A DNA stretch of 64,000 bases from Bacillota bacterium (lineage in GTDB: Bacteria > Bacillota > Ch66 > Ch109), in contig JBMNLH010000001.1 in assembly GCA_050952625.1 (NCBI GenBank), positions 128,001 through 192,000 of the forward strand, read 5' to 3'. Positions 1-46,100 of the stretch are shown in pieces. The notes beneath the pieces were generated by a model, which was given only the letters and a program-made list of their open reading frames with translations, did not search any database and was not told the origin of the DNA. The translations under genes were made by a program, and so were the position numbers. Every line of letters starts with the position of its first letter. The stretch's first letter is position 1.

Positions 1-17
1 CTGGAGTTGATAATGGT

Positions 18-284
18 ATGGCTCATCCATCCGCTACGGAGGTATTAATTGATCTGGGTTGCCAGGATGGAACGGAGCATGTCGTGGATCCGCCCCGGGA
101 TCCGGGGATGGTCCAGGCATTTTTAACGGAGCATGGATATACTGAGACTCCTGATGGTTACGAGGTCCATCACATTATTCCTCTGTCCGAAGGTGGAGCC
201 GACCATCCGGCTAACATGGTATTAGTTTTGGAAGAAGAACATGATCAGATTACGGCGGCCCACCAGAGGTTTTATCAATGGTAA
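18..284 (+). CDS. HNH endonuclease domain protein (probably the 3' end of a gene starting before the window)
   Basis: Motif YEVHHIIPLSEGG...NMVLV..EEH. The frame is open back to the window edge (GGA GTT GAT AAT GGT ATG). Confidence 0.75.
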   Translation: MAHPSATEVLIDLGCQDGTEHVVDPPRDPGMVQAFLTEHGYTETPDGYEVHHIIPLSEGGADHPANMVLVLEEEHDQITAAHQRFYQW

Positions 285-377
285 TTAAGGTTTAACTTGA
301 GATGGTTTCTAGTTATATTTAAAGCATACTAGTTAAGTCGGTTTAAAAAGTTAACCATTGATATTCTTTAAAAATTA

Positions 378-406
378 GAAGGGAAATGGATGAATATGTC
401 GAATTT
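378..406 (+). promoter_or_regulatory. Putative sigma-H-type promoter upstream of csx1
   Basis: gaagggaaa-N11-gtcGAATtt resembles the SigH consensus RNAGGAWWW-N11/12-RNNGAAT. Confidence 0.4.
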
Positions 407-493
407 CCAGTATACAGTATTGATATGGTCGAATAACTAGTAGGTATTGCGAAACAACTTAATTATTGGGATTTAGCGTAGAACGGAGGCCTA

Positions 494-2206
494 ATGATAA
501 TGGAGAAAAAACCGTGGAAGCTAATTACCTTTATCGGGATGGGTTATTATCAGCCGACGAATTATAAGATTAAAGGAGTAGAATATCCTGACACCAAATA
601 TTTTCCCTTAGCTGCGGCTAAATGGTTGATTGAGCAAAGGGGAGATCAAGGAAAAATTGTAGTACTGGTCACTAAAGAAGTTATTGAAGATACAAAAAAC
701 CAGAATTTACAGGGATTTAAGGAAGCCTTATTACTTGACCCACAATTTAAACATCTAAATGTGCAGCAAGAAATATTTCCTTGGAAAGAAGAAAGCGAGC
801 TCTGGGAAATATTTAAGATAATCGTTAATTCGGTAGAGAATGGCGAAACCGTATATTTTGATATTACTCATTCCTTTAGATTTATCCCGTCCATCGTTTT
901 GTTGGCTTTGATTTATTTAAAAGAGGTTAAAAGGATAGACCTTCAGTCGGTGTTCTACGGAAACTTTGAGGCAACGAAATCAGGCTTTGACTATGCACCC
1001 GTATTTGATATTCTCCCTTTTGTCGATCTCGCGGAATGGCTGTTTGGGGCGCGAGTATTTAAAGAATTTGGGTTAGGCAGTATTTTAGGTGACAAAATTA
1101 AGACGGTGCAGGCTGAAATACGGAGAAAAAGCAAAGAAGGGCCGGAGAAGTTAATTAAGCTGGGGACCCGCTTGAATAATCTTTCAAGTGCTTTAGCTGT
1201 GGGTAATGCCATAGGTGTGGGTGAAAACGCCCTGAAATTGACTAATTTTATAAATCAAAATAAAGATAAAATAGAAACGGAAGTAAGGGAGTATGTCCCG
1301 CCATTGGTGCCGTTAATAGAGGGTATTGTGGATGAATATGCTCAATTTGGGCTTGAGGATATTCAGTTAAATATGAAGGAATTAGAGAGAGAAGAAAGTT
1401 TAATTCGCTGGTATCTAGAAAAAAAAGATATCGGAAAAGCCCTGCAACTGTTTAGGGAATTTATAGTAAATACTGTTTTATATATTAATGCTGGGTCGAC
1501 TCGTGAGTGGCTAAAACTGGATAATAGATTGCCCGTAGAACGGCAATTACATAATTTAAAGGTCGCTAATACAGAGGTTGGTCGCCTCTGGGATGAAATT
1601 GCATTCGAAAGAAATTCAATTGCCCATTGTGGTTTTAATAATCAAGACAAATTTAATCCGAATAAAGAGTATCGAAATTTACAGTTGGTTACCAGGCCTG
1701 ACCATAATCTTGAGGAATGGATTTCTAGAATTGCTTCAGAGGTACAAGCTTTAGCCTTCGATGAAGGATCGGTCCTGCTAACACCATTGGGGCTGTCGAA
1801 AGGGTTATTATTTACCTTATGGCAGAGATATCCTGATATTGAGCGGACCATAATTCTCACATCGGCAGAGACGGTCAACAGTATCGAAGAAGTGAAAAAG
1901 ATAACCGGATACTCAGGGGAGATCAAGATCTGCCTAGTTCAAGATCCATTTACTGCTTTTGACCAGATTGAAAATAAGTGGAAGGAAATAAAAGATTTTC
2001 TTAAAAGTAATATTATTGTTAATATCACTGGCGGTACCACAGCACTTCAATATTTGGTGGAAAAAATACAACAAAGGCTTATTAACCAGGATGTGAGAAT
2101 AACTACGGTTGCGGCTATTGATCGAAGGCCCGTGCAGGAACAAAAAGAAAACCCATGGGTAGCCGGACAGATAATTAAATTAAAGGAAGACCATCAGGAA
2201 GATTAG
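494..2206 (+). CDS. csx1: Csx1-family (TM1812/DxTHG-type) CARF-HEPN ribonuclease with an additional C-terminal CARF-like domain
   Basis: N-terminal ITFIGMGYY, DITHSFR motif, HEPN RNSIAH; C-terminal LLTPLGLSKG...IVNITGGTT CARF-like signature; adjacent to the cmr operon. Confidence 0.85.
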   Translation: MIMEKKPWKLITFIGMGYYQPTNYKIKGVEYPDTKYFPLAAAKWLIEQRGDQGKIVVLVTKEVIEDTKNQNLQGFKEALLLDPQFKHLNVQQEIFPWKEESELWEIFKIIVNSVENGETVYFDITHSFRFIPSIVLLALIYLKEVKRIDLQSVFYGNFEATKSGFDYAPVFDILPFVDLAEWLFGARVFKEFGLGSILGDKIKTVQAEIRRKSKEGPEKLIKLGTRLNNLSSALAVGNAIGVGENALKLTNFINQNKDKIETEVREYVPPLVPLIEGIVDEYAQFGLEDIQLNMKELEREESLIRWYLEKKDIGKALQLFREFIVNTVLYINAGSTREWLKLDNRLPVERQLHNLKVANTEVGRLWDEIAFERNSIAHCGFNNQDKFNPNKEYRNLQLVTRPDHNLEEWISRIASEVQALAFDEGSVLLTPLGLSKGLLFTLWQRYPDIERTIILTSAETVNSIEEVKKITGYSGEIKICLVQDPFTAFDQIENKWKEIKDFLKSNIIVNITGGTTALQYLVEKIQQRLINQDVRITTVAAIDRRPVQEQKENPWVAGQIIKLKEDHQED

Positions 2207-2260
2207 GTGACCTGAAATTCTAAAAGTGATCAAAGCAGGCAAAATTTTTTTGTCTAGATT

Positions 2261-3547
2261 ATGAGGTGGAATGTGGCTAGAGTTCTCATTTCAGGCATAG
2301 GTACTGGCCAGCTTAATGGTCAGGATGATTATGGGCTTGAACACCGAAGAAAATACCGAACAGCAACTTATCTTATTGATCAGAAAAAATATGAAACAGA
2401 GTTTATAGCCAGTGCATTAATAGAACATTACCAAATTGAAAAGGTGTTTCTTGTTGGTACCGTAAAATCAATGTGGGAAAATGTATATGAGTATTTTGCT
2501 GGTGCTAACCTGGATGAAGAATATTATTTCCATTTGGTTGAAGCAATTGAAAAATCAAATTATTTAGATCAATGCTTTGACATGGACTATCTTGGCAACG
2601 TGAACGAAGCAATGAACTGTTTTCTTAAGTCGAGTGACTCACGTTGTTTTTTAATTAAGTACGGCTTGAATGAAGAGGAAATTATCTATAATTTCGGGAT
2701 ATTTCAGGATATCGCGGAGTTGTTGGAAAGTGGAGACGAGGTGTTTCTGGACATAACTCATTCTTTTCGGTCATTGGCTCTATTTCAATACACAATGGTC
2801 AATTACATAGACAATTTGTCACACAAAAACATTGAGGTTAAGGGCGTGTTTTACGGCATGCTCGAAACTGCTCGGGAGATGCAGGGCATTACACCGGTGG
2901 TTAATCTTAAAACAGTGTATGAATTAAGCAATTGGGTAAAAGCCATTCATGAGTTAAAGAGTTACGGAAATGGTTATATAGTATCGGATTTATTAAGAGA
3001 TTATGATAAACGACTAGCTAACAAGATCAAAATGTTTTCGGACCTGGTTAATTTAAACTACCTGGCTGGGGTAAAAAACCAAGTGGACAATCTGTCGAGA
3101 TTAAACTTTGAACACATAAATGGGCCGGGCAGTATGGTGGCAGAGTATCTAAATCGTTATGTTAACCGGTTCGCGTCAATCAGAAATGAGTGGGAGTTCC
3201 AGTTTGAAATGGCAAAGTGGTATTTTGAAAATAAACGGTATGCTACGGGTTATATTGCTTTGATAGAATCGATATTAACTCGAATTTGCGAATTGTTAGC
3301 TTTAGATCCTAAAATTAAAAACAATAGAGATGAAGCGAAAAATATTCTCTATAATAACCGATCAGGTGCTAATTTGAGAGAGGTCAGGTATAAGTTCGAT
3401 GCGATTAATAGAATCCGTAAGAATGTGGCGCATGTCCTTGATGATCGGGACGAAAGGAATTATTTGACGGATGTGCGGCAGTCAGCTTATTACATCCGGA
3501 GTTTAGAAGGATTATTAAAGCGTCTGTCGGCTGATGATTTAAGGTGA
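2261..3547 (+). CDS. csx1: Second Csx1-family CARF-HEPN ribonuclease (TIGR02221-like); true start may be GTG 2273
   Basis: VLISGIG start, LVGT..SMW, DITHSFRS, HEPN RKNVAH. Confidence 0.85.
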   Translation: MRWNVARVLISGIGTGQLNGQDDYGLEHRRKYRTATYLIDQKKYETEFIASALIEHYQIEKVFLVGTVKSMWENVYEYFAGANLDEEYYFHLVEAIEKSNYLDQCFDMDYLGNVNEAMNCFLKSSDSRCFLIKYGLNEEEIIYNFGIFQDIAELLESGDEVFLDITHSFRSLALFQYTMVNYIDNLSHKNIEVKGVFYGMLETAREMQGITPVVNLKTVYELSNWVKAIHELKSYGNGYIVSDLLRDYDKRLANKIKMFSDLVNLNYLAGVKNQVDNLSRLNFEHINGPGSMVAEYLNRYVNRFASIRNEWEFQFEMAKWYFENKRYATGYIALIESILTRICELLALDPKIKNNRDEAKNILYNNRSGANLREVRYKFDAINRIRKNVAHVLDDRDERNYLTDVRQSAYYIRSLEGLLKRLSADDLR

Positions 3548-3877
3548 GCCTTTATGATCTGATTCAAGCTAGATCCAAAACAGGTGGCTTTTCTGACCTT
3601 ACCCGGTAAGGTTGTATTGCATGGCAACCTAACGGGGTTATTTTTTGAAAAAGGAGTGGCTTAAATTTTTTCATTCATTGAAGCTTTCCTTTTGCCCGTT
3701 TGTAGACTTTTCTGCTAGTTGAACTATATCTACTTGTTTGCTCTTTATAAATGTTAATAAATCTTGACGAATGATGTCGAATTGTTTTTTTGAAATAGAA
3801 TCTGCTATAAATTAAATCCTAGTAATATAGTCTACTTTAAATTAGCGAGATATTGATTATGTTAATAGACTATTAAA

Positions 3878-3907
3878 AGAGGAAAATCAATAAATAATGT
3901 CGAAATA
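3878..3907 (+). promoter_or_regulatory. Putative sigma-H-type promoter upstream of cmr1
   Basis: agAGGAaaa-N12-gtcGAAAta. Confidence 0.35.
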
Positions 3908-3982
3908 CCATAATGTAGTATGCAATTCTGCGGTATTACGTAATTTTTTTTTCTCGGTAAAGGAGTACAAAGGGGTGTTGGC

Positions 3983-4972
3983 ATGCCGGATCTTAACCAA
4001 TTAATAGAGGCATCGGCGATTCAGTGTAAAACATTTAATTGTACTGTGCTAACTCCGCTGTTCCTGCATGGTTGGCAGGAGACAGTGGTGACTGGCCACG
4101 GGAGACCAGTAAATAGGCCGGTCAGCGCAGAGTTCCGAATCCCCTCAATGAAAGGGGTATTGCGTTACTGGTGGCGGACCTTACAACCACTTAAACTTCA
4201 AGCTTTGCAGCAAAAGGAACAAGAATTGTTTGGCGGAACTAGCGGTGATAAAGGACAAAGATCCCCTTTATTGCTGAAAGTCAGCATATTGGATAGAGGT
4301 CCAAGCTCAGAAAATATGAACACATCATCCCTGTGTCCGCATAAAGGTGGCATGCCATCACTGGCCCTGCCTGCGGACCGAGAGTTTGCTTTTGAGCTTG
4401 CAGTGCATCAGCGCAATGCCGCGAGATTATCTGAATACGAAGCAATATGTCAATTCATGTTTCTCTTGGCTGGTTTCGGACAAAGGTCTCGTCGGGGAGC
4501 GGGGTCGCTTCAGGTTGAAGGGCTATGTTGGCAAAACATTAAGGAGTATCAAAACTCTTTGCGGGAAACTTTGCAATCCCTAAATTGCGCGAATGATTTT
4601 GAGTTTCCAAATGGTAATACGGGCGGATGTTTGCTACAACGCAAACGACGGGAGTCAACGGAGGCGAGGGGGGCTTTTCACCCGATTTTGCAGCGGGTCT
4701 GGGTTGGATCCGATTCTCGGACTGCAGAAGAGGCTAGACGCCAAATCAGTAATGCCGGCCATCTAGCTAATCCTAGTGGAAAAGCCCAGTATTTAGGCAA
4801 TGTAGGGGGCAAAGGGATTGCTCGTTTAGCTTCGCCTCTTTTGTGTACGGTTAGAAAAATCGGAGAAGCCTACTGCCCCATTGTGAGTGAAGTCAGCAGC
4901 CCGCATCTAGGGAAAAACGTATACATACAACGACGAAACGAGTTTTTAGAGGCTCTGGGGGTGAAGGTGTGA
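3983..4972 (+). CDS. cmr1: Type III-B RAMP Cmr1
   Basis: LTPLFLHG, FRIPSMKGVLRYWWR, LFGG, GFGQRSRRGAG glycine loop. Confidence 0.93.
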   Translation: MPDLNQLIEASAIQCKTFNCTVLTPLFLHGWQETVVTGHGRPVNRPVSAEFRIPSMKGVLRYWWRTLQPLKLQALQQKEQELFGGTSGDKGQRSPLLLKVSILDRGPSSENMNTSSLCPHKGGMPSLALPADREFAFELAVHQRNAARLSEYEAICQFMFLLAGFGQRSRRGAGSLQVEGLCWQNIKEYQNSLRETLQSLNCANDFEFPNGNTGGCLLQRKRRESTEARGAFHPILQRVWVGSDSRTAEEARRQISNAGHLANPSGKAQYLGNVGGKGIARLASPLLCTVRKIGEAYCPIVSEVSSPHLGKNVYIQRRNEFLEALGVKV

Positions 4973-6714
4973 GTGAGGTCGGCAATTTGCTGGTTTTTAG
5001 CGTAGGCCCAGTTCAGAGTTTTATTGCCTCGGCCAGGAAGATTGAGGATTTATGGAGCGGGAGTTACATTCTTTCCCATCTAGCTGAACAAGCCATGAGC
5101 GTTATCTTGGAACAGGCGGAAGCTAAACAAGTTAAGGCAGAAATGATTTATCCTCCGATGAAATCATCAACCGGTCCGCAGCATCAGCAAGCTGGAAACC
5201 GGGTAGCTCATATTGAAGTAGCGTCACAGCCTAACCGGTTTATTTGTTGGTTGGAAGCAGACAGTCAAACGGTATCAGTAATAGCTCGACAGGCAGAAAA
5301 AAAGGTCCGGGACAGTCTGGTTGACCTGGGCGAATACGCCTTGCGCCGCGTTTTCCCTAAAGATGCTAATCGGGATTATATGTTGGACCTGCACCGGCAG
5401 CAGGTGGATAACCTGCTGGAAGTTTACTGGGCCACGGAGCCGTTTGCTCTGACTGATGACTATAATCAAGCTCGAAACCAGGTGGAAAAGCGGTTGGCGG
5501 CGGTAAAAAACGCCCGTCCCTATCATCCCTATCGGCAGCAGGGATTGGTGTGTACCCTCTGCGGGGAACAGCAGGCCTTAATTTCCCGATGTTTGCCTGA
5601 TCAAGAATGGATTACGTACGCTCTCATGAAAGAAACATTGGCCGGTACTTGGAATAAACGGCATGATCAGTTTAAAGCCCCGCTGGAGTTAGATGCGGAT
5701 GACCAGAAGGTGGGGCGGATAAAAGACAACGAGGGTTTGTGCGGCATTTGTCTGAGCAAACGGCTAGCTCGGGATTACTTTAAAGATAAGTACCAGGCCC
5801 CCAATGCCTTTGCGCCTTTCCCTTCGACCCAGGATATCACCGGTGGCAGCAAGTATTACGCCATTTTAATGATGGACGGGGACGACATGGGTAAGTGGGT
5901 TTCCGGGCAAAAGAAAAACCCGCCAGTAAAAGTAGATATGCAGTATCAGCAGGATTTGAGCAAAAAATTGGAGGAGTTTGCCCTCACCTCAGTTCCTAAA
6001 TTGGTGAATGAGTTTGAAGGTAAACTCATTTATGCCGGGGGAGACGATGTCTTGGCTTTTGTCCCGGTCCGACACGCCCTGAACTTAGCCCGTTCACTGC
6101 GCCTGGCTTTCAGCGATCCCCAAAAAGGGTTAGACCCGGAGGCCACTGCTTCGATCGGGGTGGTGGTGGTTCACGCCAAAGCTCCGCTGGCAATGGCCTT
6201 GGAGTATGCCCGGCAAATGGAAAGCAAGGCCAAAGCCTATCGGCACGCTAATGGTCGGGCCAAAGACGCACTGGGATTAGCGGTGATCACCCATAGCGGC
6301 GAGATTCGGGAAGCTATATTACCTTGGGCAATGGATGGCCAGCGATATACTGGGGAAAAAGCCCAATGTTCAATTGGTTATTTGCTGGCTTTGTTTCAGT
6401 TGGTAGAGACTGATCTCTCGGTCAGCTTCATTGAGCATTTTGCCCAGGCTTTTTTACCGCTGCTCGGGGCGGATTTGAAAGGCCAGCGCAAGTTTAAAGT
6501 CTTAGACGAACCAGAGTTAAACCAAAAACTGCTGTGTAGTGAGATGCACCGGGTATTGGAGCGGTCAAAAAAAGAAGACTCACGGCGGCAGGATTTGGCT
6601 AAGCAGGCGCAAATCATGATTCAACTCCATGAGCTAATGCCTTCTGGCCTGCAATTCATCCATCTGTTAGAAATGGCGCGGTTCTTTAAGCGTACCGGAG
6701 GTGATAAGTCATGA
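4969..6714 (+). CDS. cmr2: Cas10/Cmr2, lacking the HD nuclease domain, cyclase palm intact
   Basis: Begins directly at GPVQSFIASARK..DLWSGSY; CxxC pairs; MDGDDMG and YAGGDD motifs. Confidence 0.95.
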   Translation: MSEVGNLLVFSVGPVQSFIASARKIEDLWSGSYILSHLAEQAMSVILEQAEAKQVKAEMIYPPMKSSTGPQHQQAGNRVAHIEVASQPNRFICWLEADSQTVSVIARQAEKKVRDSLVDLGEYALRRVFPKDANRDYMLDLHRQQVDNLLEVYWATEPFALTDDYNQARNQVEKRLAAVKNARPYHPYRQQGLVCTLCGEQQALISRCLPDQEWITYALMKETLAGTWNKRHDQFKAPLELDADDQKVGRIKDNEGLCGICLSKRLARDYFKDKYQAPNAFAPFPSTQDITGGSKYYAILMMDGDDMGKWVSGQKKNPPVKVDMQYQQDLSKKLEEFALTSVPKLVNEFEGKLIYAGGDDVLAFVPVRHALNLARSLRLAFSDPQKGLDPEATASIGVVVVHAKAPLAMALEYARQMESKAKAYRHANGRAKDALGLAVITHSGEIREAILPWAMDGQRYTGEKAQCSIGYLLALFQLVETDLSVSFIEHFAQAFLPLLGADLKGQRKFKVLDEPELNQKLLCSEMHRVLERSKKEDSRRQDLAKQAQIMIQLHELMPSGLQFIHLLEMARFFKRTGGDKS

Positions 6715-7850
6715 AACAGCTTTTTATGCAACCAGTAGATACCTTCTTTTTCCGTAATCAAAAGGATTTTACCCCCGGGGTGAATTCGATGGCTGCTTCA
6801 GTTTTTCCGCCCCGCCCGGGAACGGTCTACGGAGCTTTGCGCAGTGCTTATATCAACCAATACAGCACTTTCGAGCAGTTTCGTACCGGGTGTGAGGGCC
6901 AGGTTAAAGAGTGGATGGGAACCCCGGTCGAACCGGGTCGGTTTCGGCTGCGCGGGTGTTTTCTTCACGATCAACAGCAGCCGATCTTACCGTTGCCTCT
7001 GGATTACCAAGTTGTCGAAACTGAGCATACGGGCGAAGCAGCCGAAATAGCCTATCCGCTGAAACTGACCTTAGACGTTGTTCCCGCTTCTGATGGACGT
7101 CAGTACCGACTCTACGGGGTTCGGGATGAAAAAAGCGGCTCCAGCGCAGGAGCTTATCTCCCGTTGTCAGACTGGAAAAAAGCATTGCTTGAGCCGTCAA
7201 GCGTACATATTTATCGAAGCAGCCACTGGATGATCCAAGAGGACAAGCTCGGAATCGCCCGGGATTGGGCCACCCGAACCGCTAGAGAGGGCATGCTCTA
7301 TCAAATTAAAACAAACCGTTTTATTGAAGCGAAAGAACCGGCCCGAAGCCCGGGCTTGTTAGCGGTCTGTACGGATGCTCCGGATTTTTCCGAGATTTCC
7401 TTGGTCCGGCTGGGGGGACGGAATCGTCCCTGGGCACTTAAATCCATACCGGACGAGTTTGGGATGTTTAAAGCCAAAGAGGAACGGTTAATTGAAGAAC
7501 GGATTGCCAGCAGCCAAATTGCCCGTTTGATACTGTTGACCCCAGCCATTTGGCGGGAAGATTCGTCGTTCTATCAACAGCAAGCTGGAGTTTTTCAACT
7601 GCGGCCGGGCCTCTCCTTCCCTGTTTTGGCCGAAGCAATCGGCCGGCCAGTATTGGTCGGGGGATGGGACATTGTCCGGAATGCGCCGAAACCAAGGATT
7701 CAGGCGGTCCCAGCCGGCACGGTTCTCTATCTGCGAGTATCGAAAGAACAGGCCTCAGCTTTGGTCCAAGGCTTGAAAGAAACGATGGTTAGTGATGAGT
7801 TGGCTTACGAAGGTTATGGCTGGGCAGTTTGCGGACCAGTCAAATTATAA
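6711..7850 (+). CDS. cmr3: Type III-B Cmr3
   Basis: PVDTFFFR, PPRPGTVYGALR, GGWD...PKP...VPAGTV, GYG. Confidence 0.93.
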   Translation: MKQLFMQPVDTFFFRNQKDFTPGVNSMAASVFPPRPGTVYGALRSAYINQYSTFEQFRTGCEGQVKEWMGTPVEPGRFRLRGCFLHDQQQPILPLPLDYQVVETEHTGEAAEIAYPLKLTLDVVPASDGRQYRLYGVRDEKSGSSAGAYLPLSDWKKALLEPSSVHIYRSSHWMIQEDKLGIARDWATRTAREGMLYQIKTNRFIEAKEPARSPGLLAVCTDAPDFSEISLVRLGGRNRPWALKSIPDEFGMFKAKEERLIEERIASSQIARLILLTPAIWREDSSFYQQQAGVFQLRPGLSFPVLAEAIGRPVLVGGWDIVRNAPKPRIQAVPAGTVLYLRVSKEQASALVQGLKETMVSDELAYEGYGWAVCGPVKL

Positions 7851-7862
7851 GGGGGTAGGAAT

Positions 7863-8765
7863 ATGTTTAACCTTAAGAAAATGCTATTTTTGCACGCTAT
7901 TACTTCAGTTCATGCCGGCAGCGGAAGTGAACTGGGTTTAGTGGATTTGCCGATCCAGCGGGAAAAACACACCGGTTATCCGAAAATTGAAAGCTCTTCC
8001 CTGAAAGGGGCGGTCAGAGCCACGGTTAGTGCGGTTGTCAACAGCGATGTTAAATCCCCTGAGGATAAAGAGATGATTGAGGTGGTCTTTGGTAAAGAGG
8101 GCGATGAGAAGAAGAACAATGCGCAGGCCGGAGCAATTTCCCTGTCGGATGCGCGGCTTCTGCTTTTCCCCGTGCGTTCGCTACGCGGCGTGTTTGCCTG
8201 GGTTACTTGTCCGCTGGTGCTTAAACGGTACAATCAAGAACTAAAACTATACTGCCCTGACCAACCGCTGTTGCCGATTCCAGAAACAAAAACCGCGGCC
8301 GGAGAGGCGATTATCGTTAATCCTCGAGAAACTCAGAAACAGGTGGTGCTTGAGGAATACACGTATGAAGTAAAGGTGGATGACGCCTGCCGGAAATTGG
8401 CAGAATACTTACAAGAAAAGGTTTTTCCTGGATTAGATAATGGAATTAGGGAACGGCTGTTAGTCCTGCCAGATGATGATTTTACGGATTTTGTGACCTT
8501 ATCGACCGAGGTTAATGCCCGCATTCGGATAGACCCCGAGACCGGTACCGTTAAAGATGGGGCCCTCTGGTATGAGGAGAATGTTCCCCCAGAGAGCGTT
8601 TTTTACAGCTTCTGTTTTATTGGCCAGGGCCGCTTAACCGGCCAGGAGAAAAAAGCAGAAGAAATCTGGCAGTACCTCAAGCGGGATGATATATTTCCAG
8701 AGGTCTTCCAACTGGGAGGCAACAGCACCCTGGGCAAAGGCATTTTGCGTCGAATCTGGCGTTAA
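7863..8765 (+). CDS. cmr4: Type III-B RAMP Cmr4 (target RNA cleavage subunit)
   Basis: HAGSG...VDLPIQREKHTGYP..SSLKGA, LWYEE, QLGGNSTLGKG. Confidence 0.95.
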   Translation: MFNLKKMLFLHAITSVHAGSGSELGLVDLPIQREKHTGYPKIESSSLKGAVRATVSAVVNSDVKSPEDKEMIEVVFGKEGDEKKNNAQAGAISLSDARLLLFPVRSLRGVFAWVTCPLVLKRYNQELKLYCPDQPLLPIPETKTAAGEAIIVNPRETQKQVVLEEYTYEVKVDDACRKLAEYLQEKVFPGLDNGIRERLLVLPDDDFTDFVTLSTEVNARIRIDPETGTVKDGALWYEENVPPESVFYSFCFIGQGRLTGQEKKAEEIWQYLKRDDIFPEVFQLGGNSTLGKGILRRIWR

Positions 8766-8789
8766 TTTACGGAATTAGGGGGGCGGACA

Positions 8790-9251
8790 ATGAGCAAGGA
8801 AAAAGCAAAGGCAAAAGCAAAAGAAAAAGCTGCCGCTACGCGGGTGGGCATTGAAAACGGCCGGGCTGCTTATGCCTTTCAAAAGATTAACGATTACGTG
8901 CAGGATAATATTAATAATGAAAAGGGGCTGAAGGAGTACCGTTCCTATCTGAAAAAACTTCCGGCCATGATCCAGGTAAATGGGTTAGGCCAAACCCTGG
9001 CCTTCTGTTTTGCCAAAGGAGGACAATATCAAGTTATTTACGGTCAGCTTGAGGAGTGGATTCGGCAGCAGCAATCGACCTTGATCAAGCAGTATGATAA
9101 TAAACCAGCCAAGAAGTTTGTGGAACTAGTCGTGATGATGGATAGCCGCGATTACCGAATCATAACCAATGAGGTTATTGCGGTGCTTGATTGGATGCGG
9201 CGTTTCGCTGACGGGCTGATTCGCCCGCTGGTTAACGAGCAGGAGGGTTAA
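8790..9251 (+). CDS. cmr5: Type III-B small subunit Cmr5
   Basis: YRSYLKKLPAMIQVNGLGQTLAF, WMRRFA. Confidence 0.93.
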   Translation: MSKEKAKAKAKEKAAATRVGIENGRAAYAFQKINDYVQDNINNEKGLKEYRSYLKKLPAMIQVNGLGQTLAFCFAKGGQYQVIYGQLEEWIRQQQSTLIKQYDNKPAKKFVELVVMMDSRDYRIITNEVIAVLDWMRRFADGLIRPLVNEQEG

Positions 9252-9266
9252 GGGGGTGGAGGATTC

Positions 9267-10493
9267 GTGTACTATCATCCCAAAGATACGCAAGACATCT
9301 TTGAAAAGAAAATTAGTAATTTGAACGAGAGCGTAGATAATTTATGGTACCGAGTGCATTATTTTCAACAGAACTCGTTGCATGATAAAAGTCAAAATAG
9401 ATTGGTTAAACTGCCGAAGAATTTGCGTTTAAATCGGCCCACCCAGTCGTTTCTTAACCAGCGATTGCAGCAACGGGCCCAGTTGTTAAGCCATCTGCAG
9501 GCCAGTTGTGAGTTGGCCGGGCTGAAGGGATTTTTACAAGGAAGACTAATCCACGGACTGGGCGGGGCGCATGTCCGGGAAACCTCGCTGACGCTGCATC
9601 CCCTCTACGGTCTGCCTTATATCCCGGGTTCGAGTCTGAAGGGAGCGGTCCGCAACTGGGTTTTACAGGCTTTTTTTCAGGGTGACGAAGATTCCTTGAA
9701 GAAGGAAACTCATTTAGATCAAACGAAGGCTGAAATACGGACAATCTTTTTTGACTTGTTTGGAAGCGAGGAACAAGCCGGATTGGTTGAGTTTTTTGAT
9801 GCCTTTGTTGAGTCTGATTTTTCTCTGCAACCGGATATTTTGACTGTTCATTTTCCTAAGTATTACAGTGGCGAGAAATCGCCGACCGATGATCAGAATC
9901 CCAATCCGGTCGATTTCTATACCATAAATTGTTCTTATCTACAGTTTTTCTTGGCGGTTAAGAAGGGGCGATCAACCCGGTCCAGCTTAAATAGTGCTCA
10001 ATTGATGGAATTAGCCGTAGCTTGGACGCAAAAAGCTTTGAGCGAGTTGGGGATTGGCTCCAAGACTTCAGCGGGCTATGGCTATTTTTCCAAGTTTGAG
10101 CAAATTAAGGTTAATAACCTTCGCTCAATTACTGCTGTCAATCAGTCTAGTCGAAAAAACACTGACAACAAGTCAGCGGATAGTTCAGTAAAAGGCCCGG
10201 CCCCGGCCAAGGACAAAAATAGTCCGGTTGGTCAAGTGGAAAGTCAACCAATGGATCTAGGACCCGGGCTAATATTGGTCCGGCTAATTAACCAGTTGGC
10301 TGAGAAAAGTGAGCAGGACCGCAACCGCAGCAAGGGAGAAGTCTACCAACAGGTACTGGCTTTGGCTGAGCAAGGGGAACTGGAACCAGCCCGATCGCTT
10401 AAAGCGTATTGGGAAAGGTCCGGTGATTGGAAAAAACCGAATAAAAAGCAGCAGCAGAAGATAGATGCGATAAGAAAGATATTAGGAGAATAA
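9267..10493 (+). CDS. cmr6: Type III-B RAMP Cmr6
   Basis: LHPLYGLPYIPGSSLKG, DILTVHFPKYY, GIGSKTSAGYG. Confidence 0.93.
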   Translation: MYYHPKDTQDIFEKKISNLNESVDNLWYRVHYFQQNSLHDKSQNRLVKLPKNLRLNRPTQSFLNQRLQQRAQLLSHLQASCELAGLKGFLQGRLIHGLGGAHVRETSLTLHPLYGLPYIPGSSLKGAVRNWVLQAFFQGDEDSLKKETHLDQTKAEIRTIFFDLFGSEEQAGLVEFFDAFVESDFSLQPDILTVHFPKYYSGEKSPTDDQNPNPVDFYTINCSYLQFFLAVKKGRSTRSSLNSAQLMELAVAWTQKALSELGIGSKTSAGYGYFSKFEQIKVNNLRSITAVNQSSRKNTDNKSADSSVKGPAPAKDKNSPVGQVESQPMDLGPGLILVRLINQLAEKSEQDRNRSKGEVYQQVLALAEQGELEPARSLKAYWERSGDWKKPNKKQQQKIDAIRKILGE

Positions 10494-11464
10494 TGATAAC
10501 AACAAAGCCTTATTCTATTACCTATTCCCGTTTTCGCTTCACCCTTCGGGCAGAAGAAGATGCTCGCTTACCGGCTTATTTGGGCTCAACCTTGAGGGGA
10601 GCTATGGGCCGGGCTTTCAGGCGAGGGAGTTGTCTAAGTTTGCGCAGCCACTGTTCAGACTGTATGTTCTCCTCACGCTGCGCCTACGCCTATATTTTTG
10701 AAACCTCACAGGCTTCAACGATAAACAAAGGAGCCGGGGTTGAGCATTTTTATATTCCTCACCCCTTTGTTATCGAGCCGCCCCTGGACGGAAAGACCAT
10801 TTTCAAAGCAGGAGAGGAACTGACATTCGATCTGCTGCTGATCGGCAGCGGATTACACTTTTTCCCTTTTTTCATTGCCGCCTTTGCCCAGGCAGCGGCG
10901 GAGGGTCTGGGGGCAGGACGTCATCGTTTCCGCTTGGAAAACGTGGCCCAATGGTTGGATGATGAGTTGGTTTTACTTTGGAATGGGGGTAATAGGCTGC
11001 TTGGAAATCCAGTCGCTCAGGTCTTAACCAATGATCTTGAGGCTGGAATTGACTGTAGGGAAATTACCCTGCACCTGCAAACCCCGCTGCGGATAAAAGA
11101 ACGCGGTCACCTGGTGAATGAAATAAGCTTTCCTTTGTTAATCCGCAGTATTTTTCGCCGCCTGGATTTATTGGGTCGCGTTCATGGCGATGGTCCGCTA
11201 ATTCTGCCGTATACCGATTATCTTCAACAGGCGGCGGCAGTTAGTGCGGTGCCAGAAGCTAATTCATTATACTGGACAGAATGGCGGCGTTATTCCAATC
11301 GCCAAAAGGTTCACATGAATATGGGAGGATACTGTGGCAGTATCCGGTATCAGGGTGATCTCGGCCCTTTTCTTCCTTACCTTAAAATGGCAGCCGTCCT
11401 GCACCTGGGCAAAGGAACAGTGTATGGCCTGGGCAAAATCGCCATTGAGGTTACCGAGAGGTGA
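10493..11464 (+). CDS. cas6: Cas6 pre-crRNA endoribonuclease
   Basis: YLGSTLRGA, Cys cluster, PHPFVIEPP, terminal HLGKGTVYGLG G-loop. Confidence 0.92.
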   Translation: MITTKPYSITYSRFRFTLRAEEDARLPAYLGSTLRGAMGRAFRRGSCLSLRSHCSDCMFSSRCAYAYIFETSQASTINKGAGVEHFYIPHPFVIEPPLDGKTIFKAGEELTFDLLLIGSGLHFFPFFIAAFAQAAAEGLGAGRHRFRLENVAQWLDDELVLLWNGGNRLLGNPVAQVLTNDLEAGIDCREITLHLQTPLRIKERGHLVNEISFPLLIRSIFRRLDLLGRVHGDGPLILPYTDYLQQAAAVSAVPEANSLYWTEWRRYSNRQKVHMNMGGYCGSIRYQGDLGPFLPYLKMAAVLHLGKGTVYGLGKIAIEVTER

Positions 11465-11645
11465 TTTCAGCCAGATGAGGATAGTCTGCGAATGTATATT
11501 CTGTGTAAGTCGTGCCGAAAAGATATTACCACAGCCGGCAAAGAGAAACTTTATGAACTGGATGAACGATACTATATTGTGTGAAATTGTTAATTCATAA
11601 CCTCTGGTTTGATCCAAAACAGATGGTGGTTATAAAAAGTGAGAA

Positions 11646-11981
11646 ATGGCTAATTTGAGGGGGATGTCTTGTCACGCGTCCATCACTTCTGTCCACGGCG
11701 GCCAACCGGGCAAAAATTTTGGGGTTCGGATTAAAGTGCTTATCCCAGAAGGATTAGTCAAGGAACCAAGTCGGTCCCCAACCCACCACCTTGGAAATTG
11801 TGCTGATGAATCAATTACCCCTTCCCATACCACTTTCCTAAATAAAAGCGATGGCAGCCAGAAAAACAGTTTTCCAGCGGCCAATAATATAAGGGGTTAT
11901 GGGCAAGAACATTTGGATGATCTTGACTATGATGATAACGATGATGACGTGTTATTTTCTGATTACATTAAGAATATCTAG
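11646..11981 (+). pseudogene. Hypothetical or truncated ORF, N-terminus resembling the end of a HIRAN domain, acidic tail
   Basis: ASITSVHGG..GKNFGVRIKV resembles the C-terminal strands of HIRAN; poor start context. Confidence 0.3.
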
Positions 11982-12068
11982 CAAGGACCCAAGCAGGCCC
12001 TAAATGCTATAAAAACTAATTAAAAGCCAATTAAAATAGATTATCTTTGAATTAAGGAGATCGTTTAT

Positions 12069-12758
12069 ATGGTAGATCAAAACCTTTCACGGGTAGTTCA
12101 ACAGCATTATCTTGCCCAGCGGTTGGCTCGACAAAGTACCGAGAAGATAGCACGTGTGCTTGATGATTTAATGGATAATTCCACCAGCGGTCAAAGTATG
12201 CTTAGCTGGGATTTTTTAGCAAAAGCCAAACAGCAGGTAGAGGACTGTTTACATAACGGCCAACAGGCAGTAAAAATAGCAGTGCTGGTTCCAGTGGGTT
12301 TGTTTGGATTAACCCAGGGGTTTGATATGCCAGACCTGGACATATCTTTGCTCGGGATCGGAAACCACCGATTTTTTCTTTGTCATAGTGCTATCGGCTT
12401 GGCGGTTTTACGCTACTTCTATCGACGGTGGGTTGAATCGGAGGATGGGCGATTTTCTTCTCGCCTGGGACACAAGGTGGCCGGGGTAGCACTTGGCAGT
12501 TGTGCCTTGGGTGTAGGTTTGCATTTAGCGATTGATGTTTTTCAGCCGAAATCAGTCGTCTTCCCGTTTTTTGGCTCTTTAATCAATGGAACGTTAGTTG
12601 ACGATAATATTTGGCTGTTAGGCAATTCTTTGTGGGCCTTTAAAATAAGTCATGATGTTTTTGCCTTGTCCCTGGCGGATGAGTTAACTCAGGCCAGGGA
12701 ATGGGTGCAGAATCATTTTGAAGGGTGGAATGTCCGTGCAGTTTTTAATCGGGATTGA
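12069..12758 (+). CDS. Membrane-bound metal-dependent hydrolase, YdjM-like
   Basis: PDLD, HRFFLCHS and HLAID motifs among hydrophobic helices; RBS aaggag. Confidence 0.6.
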   Translation: MVDQNLSRVVQQHYLAQRLARQSTEKIARVLDDLMDNSTSGQSMLSWDFLAKAKQQVEDCLHNGQQAVKIAVLVPVGLFGLTQGFDMPDLDISLLGIGNHRFFLCHSAIGLAVLRYFYRRWVESEDGRFSSRLGHKVAGVALGSCALGVGLHLAIDVFQPKSVVFPFFGSLINGTLVDDNIWLLGNSLWAFKISHDVFALSLADELTQAREWVQNHFEGWNVRAVFNRD

Positions 12759-13689
12759 CCTGATGTCCCGCGAAGAAAAGATTGCCCTACTGGCCCAGTT
12801 AAAAGCAATTACTGGGTTTAATCTAATCAAGCAAGGGTCCAGCGAGTTCGTGTTGAAAGCAAAAAACGGACTGTTTTGGGCCGGAAAAAAATTGGCCGAT
12901 CTGACCGGTCAAGTTGAAGCGGTTGAAAAACTGGAAAAATGGAATAGCCAAAGCAATTGGAACCCAAATTTGCTCCAGAAGGAGATGGCCTGTCAGCAGA
13001 AAGAACTGGAATTATTAAGTGATCGGGGAGTCGAGGTCCGCCTCCGGCAAGAATTAGCCCGGTTGGCCGGAGTTGCTCCGGAGGCTGATCTAGAAACGAT
13101 TGCCCAACATTTGGTGAAGCGTCTGGCTGAGCTGTATCAGTTGGACGAATGGCACTTTCAAAATGATACGGCCCTGGAGGAAAAAGTCTATTCTGCCTGC
13201 CTGGAAGAACAAATAAATATTTTGAAACAGAAACTCAATTCGCTGGATCGGGAAGAAGAAATTCAGATGCAAGAAGCCCTTGAACAACAAATCAACCAAT
13301 TGAGCCGGGCGGAACAGGAGGCGATAAAGCAGGCCATGGGATTGGATGAGCTTTCCGCGGCGTCAATGATGACTCTGTTGAAAACCACTTCGGGAGTGGC
13401 CTTAGCTCAAGTCATTTTATCCGGGACCGGGTTTGGCGTCTATCTTTTTCTAACGACCATGATCAAAGCCCTATCGTTAATGTTGGGAGTTACTTTTTCT
13501 TTTGGCACTTATACGGCAGCCACGACCGCGATGGCCTTTTTATTGTCTTTTCCTTTTCTTCTCCTGGTGGTTGCCTTATCCGGCGGCTTTATCTGGCATA
13601 AAACGTCAGTTAAAATAGATGAGCAATTGACGAAAATCGTCTTTCTGGCGGGTCGGGCAAAAGTGGCTTATATTGAGACGGCAGGTTAA
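12730..13689 (+). CDS. YaaW-like helical protein with C-terminal hydrophobic helices
   Basis: Coiled-coil-rich N-terminus then GFGVYLFLTT..KALSLMLGVTFSFGTYTAATT; ATG 12730 overlaps the upstream gene's end. Confidence 0.5.
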   Translation: MSVQFLIGIDLMSREEKIALLAQLKAITGFNLIKQGSSEFVLKAKNGLFWAGKKLADLTGQVEAVEKLEKWNSQSNWNPNLLQKEMACQQKELELLSDRGVEVRLRQELARLAGVAPEADLETIAQHLVKRLAELYQLDEWHFQNDTALEEKVYSACLEEQINILKQKLNSLDREEEIQMQEALEQQINQLSRAEQEAIKQAMGLDELSAASMMTLLKTTSGVALAQVILSGTGFGVYLFLTTMIKALSLMLGVTFSFGTYTAATTAMAFLLSFPFLLLVVALSGGFIWHKTSVKIDEQLTKIVFLAGRAKVAYIETAG

Positions 13690-14090
13690 TCATATCTGGC
13701 GAATTAATATGTTTGAAGGTATTTAGGGATTAGGCTATAATTTTATTGTAAATTATTTAATGCTCTAAAATTGAGACTGCAAGTATATCAAGAACATTTA
13801 TATTATAGGATATTATACATATTATATATAGAGTAATAGTTGAGGTGTTTTGTATAAGTGTGACTTGCATTTAAATCTACCGCTAACCTGTTTGGACTGT
13901 CAAAAACGCGGGAGGTTAGCGATATTGAGAAATAATGAGTATTTGGAAGAAAAAAGGGGGTATAAGCAGTTATTTTTGTTTTGAATAAAATGGTAATAGG
14001 TGTTTTTAAGTTTGATTTATGATGGTTTTTTGGAGGTTAGCGGAACGCTACCTCGCAGCCCAGAATTATCAAGGCCTCTGGACAGCCGCT
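13690..14090 (+). promoter_or_regulatory. CRISPR leader
   Basis: AT-rich non-coding region directly before the first repeat, containing a cgctaacct...aggttagcg inverted repeat. Confidence 0.75.
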
Positions 14091-15501
14091 GTGAGAATCA
14101 TTGACCCGATTAGAGGGGATTGCGACCTGATGTACCAATCGACAGTCGTTCATGCGCATGTGAGAATCATTGACCCGATTAGAGGGGATTGCGACCTTAA
14201 TACACAGGTGATTCAGTCCGCAATGTCATGTGAGAATCATTGACCCGATTAGAGGGGATTGCGACCATTTATGAGCGCCTTCAGGATCACTAATCTTCCT
14301 CAATGTGTGAGAATCATTGACCCGATTAGAGGGGATTGCGACCTTTAATAATCCTTATTTACTCACTATTTACTGTTTCAGTGAGAATCATTGACCCGAT
14401 TAGAGGGGATTGCGACTTTCCTGACAGCAAGTACTCCCAATACATTATCAGTCGTGAGAATCATTGACCCGATTAGAGGGGATTGCGACTAATCCGCCTG
14501 TAAGGCCCTAAGTTATTCCCACGTGAGAATCATTGACCCGATTAGAGGGGATTGCGACTCTTCGATTCTTGTCCCTGCTTAATCCTTGTTGTACAGTGAG
14601 AATCATTGACCCGATTAGAGGGGATTGCGACATCTTATCCACCGCTTCGCATCGAGCATTCTACTGCGTGAGAATCATTGACCCGATTAGAGGGGATTGC
14701 GACACATTCTGTCACTGAGCAACCGAGTCCATTAATTACGTGAGAATCATTGACCCGATTAGAGGGGATTGCGACCTTTACTTTGATCTGACTCGCTCCG
14801 GCACTATCTTCGTGAGAATCATTGACCCGATTAGAGGGGATTGCGACCTGTCATCCAGCTCCGGCAATCGTACACTGAGTGAGAATCATTGACCCGATTA
14901 GAGGGGATTGCGACAAAACACGTCTTCCTCGTGATCTCAATCAGTGAGAATCATTGACCCGATTAGAGGGGATTGCGACTTAAGACATCTGTCTATAGAT
15001 ATACATTGCCTTATGTGAGAATCATTGACCCGATTAGAGGGGATTGCGACTTTCAGCTTTTGTTCAAGGTTTTGGATTGTATCTTTTAAGTGAGAATCAT
15101 TGACCCGATTAGAGGGGATTGCGACCTTGGATAATAAAGGAGCCGTAATCCGTAACTACTGTAAGTGAGAATCATTGACCCGATTAGAGGGGATTGCGAC
15201 TTCCAGGCCCCGAGAGGGGCTATTTTTTGCGCGCTTTGTGAGAATCATTGACCCGATTAGAGGGGATTGCGACTTCAGTAGTTTGTTTCCACGCTCCCTC
15301 ATACCATTTTTGTAAGAATTATTGACCCGATCAGAGGGGATTGCGACGTCATTTGTTCGGTCTACCCCTTTCTATTTCATCCTCTAAGTGAGAATGATTG
15401 ACCCGACCAGAGGGGATTGCGACTATCCTGTGCCGCCGATGATAGCAGCTTCTACAGGCTTCTCCGTGAGAATTATTGACCCGACCAGAGGGGATTGCGA
15501 C
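14091..15501 (+). CRISPR. CRISPR array, 20 repeats (36 bp GTGAGAATCATTGACCCGATTAGAGGGGATTGCGAC) and 19 spacers of 29-42 bp
   Basis: 17 identical repeats plus 3 degenerate trailer repeats (15312, 15388, 15466). The 3' end ATTGCGAC is a variant of the ATTGAAAC tag; the leader is on the left. Confidence 0.98.
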
Positions 15502-25156: not shown

Positions 25157-25270
25157 ATAACCTTGCGGATCTAAACCTTACGGATTTAAACCTTACGAAT
25201 TTAAACCTTACGGATTTAAACCTTACGGATCTAAAACCTCGCAGATCTAAAGCTTTACGGATCTATAACC
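25157..25270. repeat. 15-16 bp tandem repeat (TAAACCTTACGGATY), about 7 copies
   Basis: Direct inspection; the unit overlaps the stop region of the LysM gene. Confidence 0.85.
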
Positions 25271-45881: not shown

Positions 45882-46100
45882 GGAGTGAGGGGTGAGGGGT
45901 GGGGCGAGGTGTGAGGAGTAAAACGTGAGGTGTTAGGTGTGAGGGGTGAGGTGTAAGGGGTTGAGGTGTAAGGGGTGAGGTGTAAGGGGTGAGGTGTAAG
46001 GGGTGAGGAAGGAGAGCCCCGGCAGGTTCTGAAAGAAGAACTGGCCGCTGAAGGCGTTAAGGCGTGAGTGGTGAGGAGTAAGGAGTAAGGCGTGAGGGGT
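45871..46100. repeat. Heptamer tandem repeat GTGAGGN/GTAAGGN (G-rich strand)
   Basis: Roughly 19 units at 45871-46008 plus a second short cluster at about 46055-46100. Confidence 0.85.

Follow-up and report, generated by a model that had tools for sequence, protein, structure and literature searches.

A probable JukA relative and a YdjM-like membrane protein form a candidate two-gene anti-phage module in a type III-B CRISPR locus

A candidate Juk-type module between cas6 and the CRISPR leader

We analysed a stretch of 64,000 nucleotides (nt) from a Bacillota bacterium (GTDB lineage Bacteria; Bacillota; Ch66; Ch109; GenBank assembly GCA_050952625.1, contig JBMNLH010000001.1, forward-strand positions 128,001 to 192,000), hereafter called the window, in which two genes lie between cas6 and the leader of a type III-B CRISPR locus. 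Gene 1 (12069-12758, plus strand) encodes a YdjM-like membrane protein of 229 amino acids (aa), and gene 2 (12736-13689, plus strand) encodes a helical protein of 317 aa when read from GTG, the codon at which its relatives and the database copy begin. We propose, at a probability of roughly 0.55, that the two genes make up a Juk-type anti-phage module that works autonomously, lodged in the type III-B locus and not mechanistically dependent on it. An earlier note on this DNA had described two overlapping, co-oriented open reading frames (ORFs) between cas6 and the CRISPR leader, and the ORF list bears out their coordinates, lengths and description. Of the two interpretations offered there, a type III ancillary pair controlled by cyclic oligoadenylate (cOA) and an independent two-gene defence system, the second fits better and the first is not supported. 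YaaW, to which gene 2 had been likened, is JukA, the sensor of Juk, which is paired with variable effectors.

We favour a sensor and effector reading because relatives of gene 2 are fused to effector domains, the pairing of the two genes is strict and their neighbourhoods include defence genes. Independence from Cas10 signalling is suggested by the lack of a nucleotide-sensor domain in either protein, by loci that lie away from CRISPR and by genomes in which Cas10 is not detectable. The roles of sensor and effector, the substrate, the topology, the contact between the two proteins and the reason for the type III location are what we infer in the following model. A helical domain of about 220 aa in the gene 2 protein would lie on the cytoplasmic side, held at the membrane by a transmembrane hairpin. 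Judged by JukA, the gene 2 protein would detect a sign of infection at the membrane and would switch on the gene 1 protein or bring it into place. The latter may hydrolyse phosphoesters of membrane lipids or of lipid-linked precursors of the envelope, which would damage the membrane at the infection site or arrest the infected cell. The placement beside type III genes could mean that both systems face the same phages, that they are under common regulators (such as the RtcR-like CARF activators of loci L072 and L079 or the WYL-WCX proteins found in five loci) or that they are functionally tied.

The two genes travel together across phyla

Loci carrying gene 1 numbered 37 among one genome per species from 185,579 species and at least 70 on metagenome contigs. 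Pairing was counted, without de-duplication, over at least 108 loci including the window, 94 of which had at least 600 nt downstream or a gene 2 match. A gene 2 relative lies directly downstream on the same strand in 73 of these 94 listed loci, with a median gap of 21 nt between tblastn match ends, and in four more (L033, L035, L069, L075) it stands upstream or is split off by a WYL-WCX gene. The remaining 17, mostly the most distant gene 1 relatives together with L020, L021/L060, L036 and L077/L078, have no gene 2. No third gene is universal among the pair loci listed, and the commonest same-strand upstream neighbours belong to four families, namely HIRAN proteins, dynamin-like GTPases, WYL-WCX proteins and a small DUF4258 protein of about 120 aa (L072, L079, L093). 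The hosts are mostly anaerobic Bacillota and members of other non-proteobacterial phyla.

With 171 relatives of gene 1 and 635 clusters of gene 2 relatives, the two genes are not chance ORFs. Complex prediction of both proteins, run with alignments, gave no verdict (score 0.00), and none of the 146 listed representatives of the gene 2 family is a fusion of gene 1 to gene 2 of the Rosetta-stone kind. In L010 the pair is preceded by the C-terminal end of another gene 2 relative (L010:3-203), and the module may accordingly occur in tandem copies. Two copies on different contigs were seen in one metagenome-assembled genome (MAG; L023 and L025) and likewise in another (L002 and L003; L004 and L005).

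Gene 1 resembles YdjM and carries invariant His/Asp motifs

The gene 1 protein has no significant match in Pfam, NCBIfam or PADLOC. At loose thresholds, Pfam aligns its residues 84-168 to YdjM (E 0.085) and Zn_dep_PLPC (E 0.21), and its score against YdjM (PF04307) is 12.8 bits, below the 29-bit gathering cut-off that sets Pfam membership. Among 104 relatives, 90 match PF04307 at E<=0.1 (best 1.1e-6) and seven match Zn_dep_PLPC, and one relative (P0060) carries a precomputed PF04307 match. The YdjM likeness drawn in the earlier note is therefore upheld as a distant relationship, and on these profile scores the gene 1 group is a divergent sister of YdjM, not a member by Pfam's rule. A word-index search gave 171 relatives at E<=0.001, with identities of 41-68% among the 120 listed; all are named hypothetical, and they are spread over many phyla, with sources such as Syntrophomonadaceae, Peptococcaceae, Limnochordia, Ignavibacteria and Thermosipho. 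The ESM Atlas places gene 1 close to clusters with YdjM or DUF5942 in a minority of their members, with TMEM267 as a further lead.

The motifs previously pointed out in this protein as metal-binding (PDLD, HRxxxxHS and HLxxD, of which the latter two read HRFFLCHS and HLAID in the window copy) are present and fall on columns that do not vary in these 104 relatives, which are 39-58% identical; residues D89, D91, H100, H106, H152, D156, D178 and D179 are invariant throughout. A loop reading PKSVVFPFFGS...GTLVDD is also highly conserved. The first ~65 residues are variable and are predicted to form a cytoplasmic N-terminal helical hairpin, and in the subgroup comprising L033, L035, L075 and L078 this N-terminus is wholly replaced, with matches starting at residue 65-74. 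The AlphaFold 2 (AF2) model, with a predicted local distance difference test (pLDDT) score of 79, is all helical, and the core has four moderately hydrophobic helices with a family-mean hydropathy of 0.8-1.4. Lysine and arginine are concentrated in alternate loops, namely the N-terminus, the 118-135 loop and the C-terminus. Gene 1 is thus predicted to encode a polytopic inner-membrane protein whose His/Asp cluster, by the positive-inside rule, would face the outer side of the membrane, and we propose that it acts as a metal-dependent hydrolase effector. A wide VIA-align search with the model reached a best Z of 8.8, with matches only to single long helices and CorA-like hairpins, within the chance range for helical models.

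YdjM belongs to the phospholipase C / P1 nuclease clan, is LexA-regulated according to its Pfam description and has a human family member, TMEM267; we know of no function established for the family. Gene 1 shares with YdjM/DUF457 (PF04307, including E. coli YdjM and eukaryotic TMEM267) the polytopic helical membrane core, low-scoring yet consistent profile matches over residues 88-168 and the conserved His/Asp motifs (HxxxxxH, HLxxD), and it differs in its extra N-terminal cytoplasmic hairpin, the PKSVVFPFFGS...GTLVDD loop, its partner gene and the lack of an upstream LexA box. No LexA (Cheo) box was found in 11465-12068, and the window as a whole holds 16 matches with up to two mismatches, versus 21 expected by chance. 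One literature match for PF04307/DUF457/TMEM267, in the Cap1 preprint, proved false and stemmed from DUF4579, and the lipocone paper holds nothing on HIRAN, CRISPR or YdjM.

Gene 2 is probably a distant relative of YaaW/JukA

The gene 2 protein has no Pfam or NCBIfam match. The coiled-coil protein with a hydrophobic end rich in glycine, alanine and threonine that had been described from the letters is consistent with what we find, as the AF2 model (pLDDT 71) is all helical and the protein ends in two such segments at residues 226-255 and 267-283. This layout suggests a helical cytoplasmic domain of about 220 aa followed by a transmembrane hairpin and a C-terminal amphipathic helix. A wide VIA-align search with the model gave a best Z of 5.7, in the chance range for helical models, and the family profile found nothing below E 0.028 among PDB sequences.

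Several profile comparisons lead to YaaW. A profile built from 78 gene 2 sequences aligned with E. coli YaaW by hhalign at 74% probability (E 2.8e-5, 130 columns), and yaaW was its top match over the whole E. coli K-12 chromosome, at E 0.0066 with the next at 0.066. The PADLOC JukA model represents the YaaW family, with E. coli yaaW scoring 1.1e-56, and among 33 relatives of gene 2 the PADLOC JukA models match five and two. The genome that contains L029 has a single JukA-model match (E 6.3e-5), which is the gene 2 homologue itself, and the Atlas places gene 2 close to clusters with DUF3944 or PF03981, the domain pair of E. coli YaaW, in 12-16% of their members. We therefore consider gene 2 a probable distant relative of YaaW/JukA, with a confidence of about three in four, and the YaaW likeness suggested earlier survives in this distant form. 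Canonical JukA was not found at E<=1e-12 in 201 genomes of L029's phylum, and a homologue search with E. coli YaaW returned only near-identical E. coli sequences among the matches listed. The gene 2 homologue of L029 (L029:10743-11429, in a Syntrophobacterales MAG) contains an in-frame TAA and may be a pseudogene or reflect a sequencing error.

The wider gene 2 family is large, with 635 clusters at E<=0.001 in a profile search of 1.84 billion representatives. Among 146 listed new relatives, 45 are at least 400 aa long and join the gene 2-like part to other sequence. In ten of these 45 the added part is a recognisable domain (PLDc_2 in four, NERD in two, DUF4145 in two, SpoIIE/PP2C in one and a dynamin GTPase in one, P0260, of 904 aa), and the other 35 gave no confident Pfam domain. 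Fusions to PLD, NERD, dynamin and PP2C domains are what would be expected of a sensor with swappable effectors. PADLOC LeoBC models gave weak matches in 15 of 33 gene 2 relatives (best 5.1e-7), confined to the helical, hydrophobic stretch. Dynamin pairs adjoin the module in seven loci, as would suit the Eleos/LeoBC system, but gene 2 lacks the GTPase domain, and kinship between gene 2 and the neighbouring dynamins was rejected, with an hhalign probability of 0.4% and no GTPase domain.

The module often lies beside type III CRISPR and CARF genes

Neighbourhoods were annotated with Pfam over 385 ORFs of genome loci and 149 ORFs of chosen metagenome loci, and all loci were screened by tblastn, for which cas, CARF and further query sequences were drawn from annotated loci, and by Tandem Repeats Finder (TRF) for arrays. 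Gene calls were crude, taking the longest ORF first, and some G+C-rich loci received wrong-strand ORFs. Near-identical loci were removed by eye (L049/50 = L012, L055 = L014, L060 = L021, L081/82 = L031, L087/88 = L032; L097, close to L029, and the pairs L045/46, L069/75, L070/71, L073/74 and L077/78 were also merged), and keeping loci of at least 5 kb left 45 distinct loci among those listed, the window included.

CRISPR arrays, cas genes or CARF genes occur in 16 of these 45, the window among them, mostly one or two genes away, and the neighbourhood link to type III and CARF genes that the earlier note had put forward for testing is therefore real. Csx1 accompanies the pair in L002, an array with a CARF gene and a III-A system in L003, and III-B systems in L021, L033, L034 and L078, three of them with Csx1. 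Two CARF genes with cas1 and cas2 are found in L026, arrays with cas6 and csm6 in L030, a CARF-beta-CASP gene and Card1 in L031, and Csx1 with cas2 and an array in L035. L046 holds arrays and two RAMP genes, L072 cas1, cas2 and an RtcR-like activator, and L075 arrays, cas6, cas4-cas1 and cas2, while L041 has an array only and L006 a weak RtcR-type CARF match of 26 bits. Two loci shorter than 5 kb, L001 with two CARF genes and L095 with cas1, are also positive and stand outside the count. By a rough estimate, made with no computed control, a random gene would have about a 1% chance of falling within 10 kb of a ~10-kb type III locus in a 3-Mb genome. Within the 45 loci, co-occurrence with CRISPR and CARF genes appears enriched yet not obligatory, and the apparent preference of the pair for type III CRISPR loci is previously unreported in the portions of the literature searched.

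The other 29 distinct loci listed have no CRISPR or CARF gene, and their surroundings include Wadjet, McrBC-like, BrxC/D-like and helicase genes, kinase-PP2C-VWA sets, CHAT, Dcm/Vsr and transposases; TOTE and SIR2 are further defence neighbours of the pair. Of ten genomes whose pair has no CRISPR gene beside it, three yielded a Cas10 palm domain and seven did not, a result soft in both directions, as these are MAGs of unstated completeness and the palm model also matches in E. coli.

Candidate regulators recur next to the module. WYL-WCX proteins of 560-930 aa, some with two WCX matches, stand beside it in five distinct loci (L033:4536-7235, L035:6919-9717, L056:6899-9526, L075:10728-12410, L078:37-1869), and in L033 and L035 the WYL-WCX gene lies between the gene 2 and gene 1 relatives. 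RtcR-like sigma-54 activators are encoded directly upstream of the pair, followed by a DUF4258-type protein, in L072 (4699-6945) and L079 (454-2649), and in L072 tblastn matched CARF regions. No sigma-54 promoter with at least 9 of 11 matches was found upstream of the pair in 55 loci, nor any with at least seven in five chosen loci. Dynamin-like GTPase pairs adjoin the module in L023, L025, L026, L033, L035, L057 and L076, and DnaJ-domain proteins lie near the pair in three loci.

Three observations concern individual neighbourhoods. The L076 dynamin carries DUF4145, a domain also fused to gene 2 relatives. A protein of ~1,430-1,480 aa with a weak UvrD_C match is shared by two unrelated MAGs beside the pair (L011:5088-9521, L030:13151-17437). 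A distant gene 1 relative without gene 2 follows TPR, PP2C, TPR, protein kinase and VWA genes in L070 (2866-10240) and L071, which is a different conflict-system context for the YdjM-like core.

Similarities to and differences from Juk

JukA, once called YaaW, responds to the early stage of infection by jumbo phages that form a nucleus and brings in JukB as effector, and according to the same report its homologues are linked to many other putative effectors, occur as fusions to a Ras-like GTPase, a patatin-like phospholipase or a coiled-coil domain and have WYL and restriction genes as their commonest defence neighbours (bioRxiv 10.1101/2022.09.17.508391). According to two reviews, the early-infection vesicle is derived from membrane and bears an early phage protein that JukA detects, JukB forms pores in this vesicle, and JukA is placed in proteobacteria and cyanobacteria (PMC13282480, PMC13434031); RNA-targeting type III CRISPR and Juk are listed among the few defences effective against nucleus-forming jumbo phages (PMC13282480).

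The module described here resembles Juk in several respects. Both are two-gene operons, and the YaaW-family partner of Juk has a probable distant homologue in gene 2. Both the Juk family and the gene 2 family are joined to variable effectors by fusion or adjacency, lipases and GTPases included, and both have WYL and other defence genes as neighbours. JukB acts on the membrane by forming pores, and a membrane enzyme is predicted here. The two systems also differ, as gene 2 has no detectable DUF3944 or PF03981, its partner, in place of JukB, is a putative YdjM-like metallo-hydrolase whose gene precedes that of the proposed sensor, and the hosts are mostly anaerobic Bacillota and other non-proteobacterial lineages, unlike the proteobacteria and cyanobacteria that the review assigns to JukA. 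The Juk literature, its supplementary tables aside (which may list partners), mentions neither a YdjM-like partner, nor a membrane-anchored JukA, nor a link to type III systems in the portions covered.

Several results weigh against a Juk-type reading. Gene 2 has a predicted transmembrane hairpin, while JukA is described, in the part of the report consulted, as soluble and moving to the infection site (bioRxiv 10.1101/2022.09.17.508391). The gene 2 protein of the window matches neither JukA nor PF03981 or PF13099, the latter two are absent among the 25 families listed at E<=1 for 33 relatives, no JukA match at E<=0.01 was found in four of five genomes carrying a gene 2 relative, and hhalign of a narrower, 33-sequence profile against YaaW reached only 17%. 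On the side of the effector, gene 1 scores far under Pfam's cut-off for YdjM, and the literature found describes no demonstrated YdjM activity, and none in a defence or CRISPR setting. Neither AF2 model has a fold match in the PDB (Foldseek, E<=0.001). As for location, L007, L015 and L040 have plain housekeeping surroundings, and the CRISPR co-location in 16 of the 45 listed loci is tighter than ordinary defence-island clustering, which could indicate a functional tie.

A mosaic G+C content and a cassette exchanged in a close relative

The window locus begins with two Csx1-type CARF-HEPN genes (494-2206 and 2261-3547, plus strand), upstream of a type III-B operon on the same strand (3983-11464) in which Pfam, NCBIfam and PADLOC scans identify cmr1, cas10, cmr3, cmr4, cmr5, cmr6 and, as the last gene, cas6 (10493-11464; Pfam CRISPR_Cas6 3.5e-16). 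The window Cas10 keeps the GGDD cyclase motif, and an HD domain was not found in it, so that it would rely on signalling. A second Cas10 palm domain is encoded in the same genome about 8 kb before the window start (contig C1 119753-120133, in an 821-aa frame), which would place two type III systems side by side, and the sole Cas1 of the genome lies on a different contig (C3 4459-5295).

Gene 1 has a strong AAGGAG ribosome-binding site 8-9 nt upstream of its ATG at 12069. The overlap with gene 2 is 23 nt from the GTG start and would be 41 nt from an alternative TTG at 12718, which gives a protein of 323 aa (12718-13689). Directly after gene 2, in the leader, a promoter scan found a promoter-like site, TTGAAG-17-TATAAT (13713-13741). 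The CRISPR array that follows (14091-15501, plus strand) has about 20 copies of a 36-nt repeat; TRF delimits it to 14091-15052, and copies found by blastn with the L001 repeat as query reach 15466-15501. The final three repeats are slightly degenerate, at 94% versus 97%. Elsewhere in the window, tandem repeats at 45869-46008 and 25159-25271 have a 7-nt unit (GGGTGAG, ~20 copies) and a 15-nt unit (seven copies).

Upstream of the pair, a 111-aa ORF (11646-11981, plus strand) had been noted as a HIRAN-like fragment, a claim that finds weak support in pairwise matches and none in Pfam. Its residues 5-31 align to the end of the HIRAN domain of the gene upstream of the pair in L016 (pairwise E 2e-5), and its acidic tail resembles the C-terminus of the L008 HIRAN protein (E 0.001); Pfam gives no match at E<=10, leaving the ORF outside the HIRAN family (PF08797) by its rule. 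Intact HIRAN genes stand directly upstream of the pair in L008, L016, L041 and L051, and phmmer clusters these with the window ORF. No more HIRAN-coding sequence was found within 11000-12200 of the window. Because only the last 27 HIRAN residues and the acidic tail match, the ORF is, on these alignments, the C-terminal remnant of a HIRAN-domain protein.

Comparison with L001, from a related MAG, points to exchange of the genes around the pair. There gene 1 is 97.6% identical in DNA from window position 12131 on (12131-12588), and the contig (L001:1-3339) opens with one copy of the repeat found in the window array, together with a stretch that matches window 270-437 at 87% identity. Within these flanks, two CARF genes (one of the Cas_APE2256 type and one Csm6) replace the block of csx1, csx1, cmr, cas6 and the HIRAN remnant, with the breakpoint inside the first 20 codons of gene 1. 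Shared flanks around a swapped block indicate a lineage in which the cas and effector genes are replaced as a cassette and the pair is retained at the CRISPR locus. The G+C content over window 1-14000 is likewise patchy, at 0.36-0.39 in the csx1 genes, 0.49-0.52 in cmr and 0.42-0.44 in the pair, and this mosaic suggests a locus built from separately acquired modules.

DNA of this stretch is present in anaerobic digester and bioreactor metagenomes. In four metatranscriptome libraries, short contigs fall inside gene 1 (12174-12513), gene 2 (12873-13025) and cas6 and, in the same four libraries, in the leader (13771-13956), with identities of at least 99% except for one at 90-95%. These contigs are a weak hint that the pair is transcribed, as such libraries can contain DNA and stretches lacking contigs are no evidence of silence; none of the contigs in the four libraries bridges two genes, cas6 and the pair included.

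Other readings of the pair

The most serious competitor, which we nonetheless regard as unlikely, is that the pair is a true type III accessory effector, in which the Cas10 product or a CARF regulator switches on a membrane hydrolase and arrests the cell, in parallel to Cam1, Csx23, CorA and Cap1. Like Cam2/Cam3, these are membrane proteins in type III loci beside Cas10 cyclases, as here. The proximity of CRISPR, cas and CARF genes described above speaks for it, as do the signalling-reliant Cas10 of the window, the retention of the pair in L001 while the effectors change, the RtcR-like CARF-sigma54 activators just upstream in L072 and L079, and L033, L035 and L078, in which the gene 1 relative lies directly before csx1 and gene 2 is moved or out of view. 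However, known type III membrane effectors either have a soluble domain for ligand binding, be it CARF, CARF-like, SAVED, REC or of another type, or bind SAM-AMP (PMC11229360, 10.1101/2025.11.13.688252), and the pair has no recognisable signal sensor and is also found far from CRISPR loci. No CARF, SAVED or other known nucleotide sensor was detected in either protein or in the relatives with Pfam, NCBIfam and PADLOC, although a novel helical ligand binder like that of Csx23 may be present in gene 2 or gene 1. With this lack of a sensor and 29 of the 45 listed loci away from CRISPR, the cOA-controlled pair suggested in the earlier note is not supported. Moreover, Cas10 was not found in seven of ten such genomes (MAGs of unknown completeness), the window locus already holds two Csx1 effectors, and the 55 loci scanned show no sigma-54 promoter-like site before the pair. 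In the portions covered, Cam3 has six transmembrane helices and always lies next to Cami1, features that fit neither gene.

Published surveys give no ready name for such an accessory pair. The earlier statement that neither gene belongs to a known cas ancillary family is correct for Pfam, NCBIfam and PADLOC, and, in the parts covered and leaving aside supplementary lists, no fitting family appears in three surveys of the genes that accompany type III systems (Shmakov 2018, Shah 2018, Hoikkala 2024). Hoikkala et al. 2024, in the portion covered, left out candidates from loci that already held a known effector, and this pair would have been hidden by that exclusion.

A more speculative proposal, which we rate as rather improbable, makes the pair a functional arm of type III immunity, in which a membrane-anchored JukA-like sensor would mark the spot of phage entry or of sheltered phage DNA and, jointly with a lipid-cutting YdjM enzyme, would open that shelter to the RNA-guided type III response and its nucleases, with CARF or WYL regulators switching on the pair in some lineages. 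If true, adaptive CRISPR immunity would be tied to an innate sensor that detects phage entry, and a first function would be assigned to the YdjM/TMEM267 family.

Improbable to a greater degree is a membrane maintenance or stress module, in which the YdjM-like enzyme, aided by a YaaW/Cbp3-like assembly chaperone, would mend or reshape the lipids of the envelope, a service that could help upon membrane damage of any kind, such as that from type III membrane effectors or phage lysis. E. coli YaaW is annotated as a putative enzyme-specific chaperone, and the covered portions of the Juk report align the YaaW/JukA family with the mitochondrial chaperone Cbp3 (bioRxiv 10.1101/2022.09.17.508391). The dynamin-like pairs in seven loci, the DnaJ-domain proteins in three and the housekeeping surroundings of L007, L015 and L040 would also suit such a role. 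Against this, the family is rare and patchy, with 37 loci among genomes of 185,579 species, it spans many phyla at about 40-60% identity, flanked by transposases, integrases and defence genes, and the G+C content of the pair is below that of the neighbouring cmr genes. Rarity, spread, mobile flanks and lower G+C are marks of a mobile defence gene and not of a housekeeping gene, and the LexA box is missing before the pair. A toxin-antitoxin or addiction module, with a membrane hydrolase toxin neutralised by gene 2 and CRISPR or defence islands serving merely as insertion hot spots, is very improbable. The overlapping two-gene architecture, the transposases, integrases and recombinases in L002, L003, L029 and L073 and the window/L001 recombination breakpoint within the 5' part of gene 1 would suit such a module. 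Against it, gene 2 exceeds gene 1 in length, comes from a large family whose members are fused to effector domains, unlike small antitoxins, and is missing beside 17 of the 94 listed gene 1 relatives.

Implications for the Juk and YdjM families

At only 1.6 kb, the pair is easy to test in a laboratory host. If it is an autonomous Juk-type module, as we favour, the Juk sensor family would reach beyond proteobacteria into anaerobic Bacillota and further phyla, here as a membrane-anchored variant, and YdjM-type membrane metallo-hydrolases would constitute a new class of effector. The repeated close placement of the pair by type III cas, CARF and WYL genes further suggests cooperation between an innate sensor of phage entry and RNA-guided immunity.

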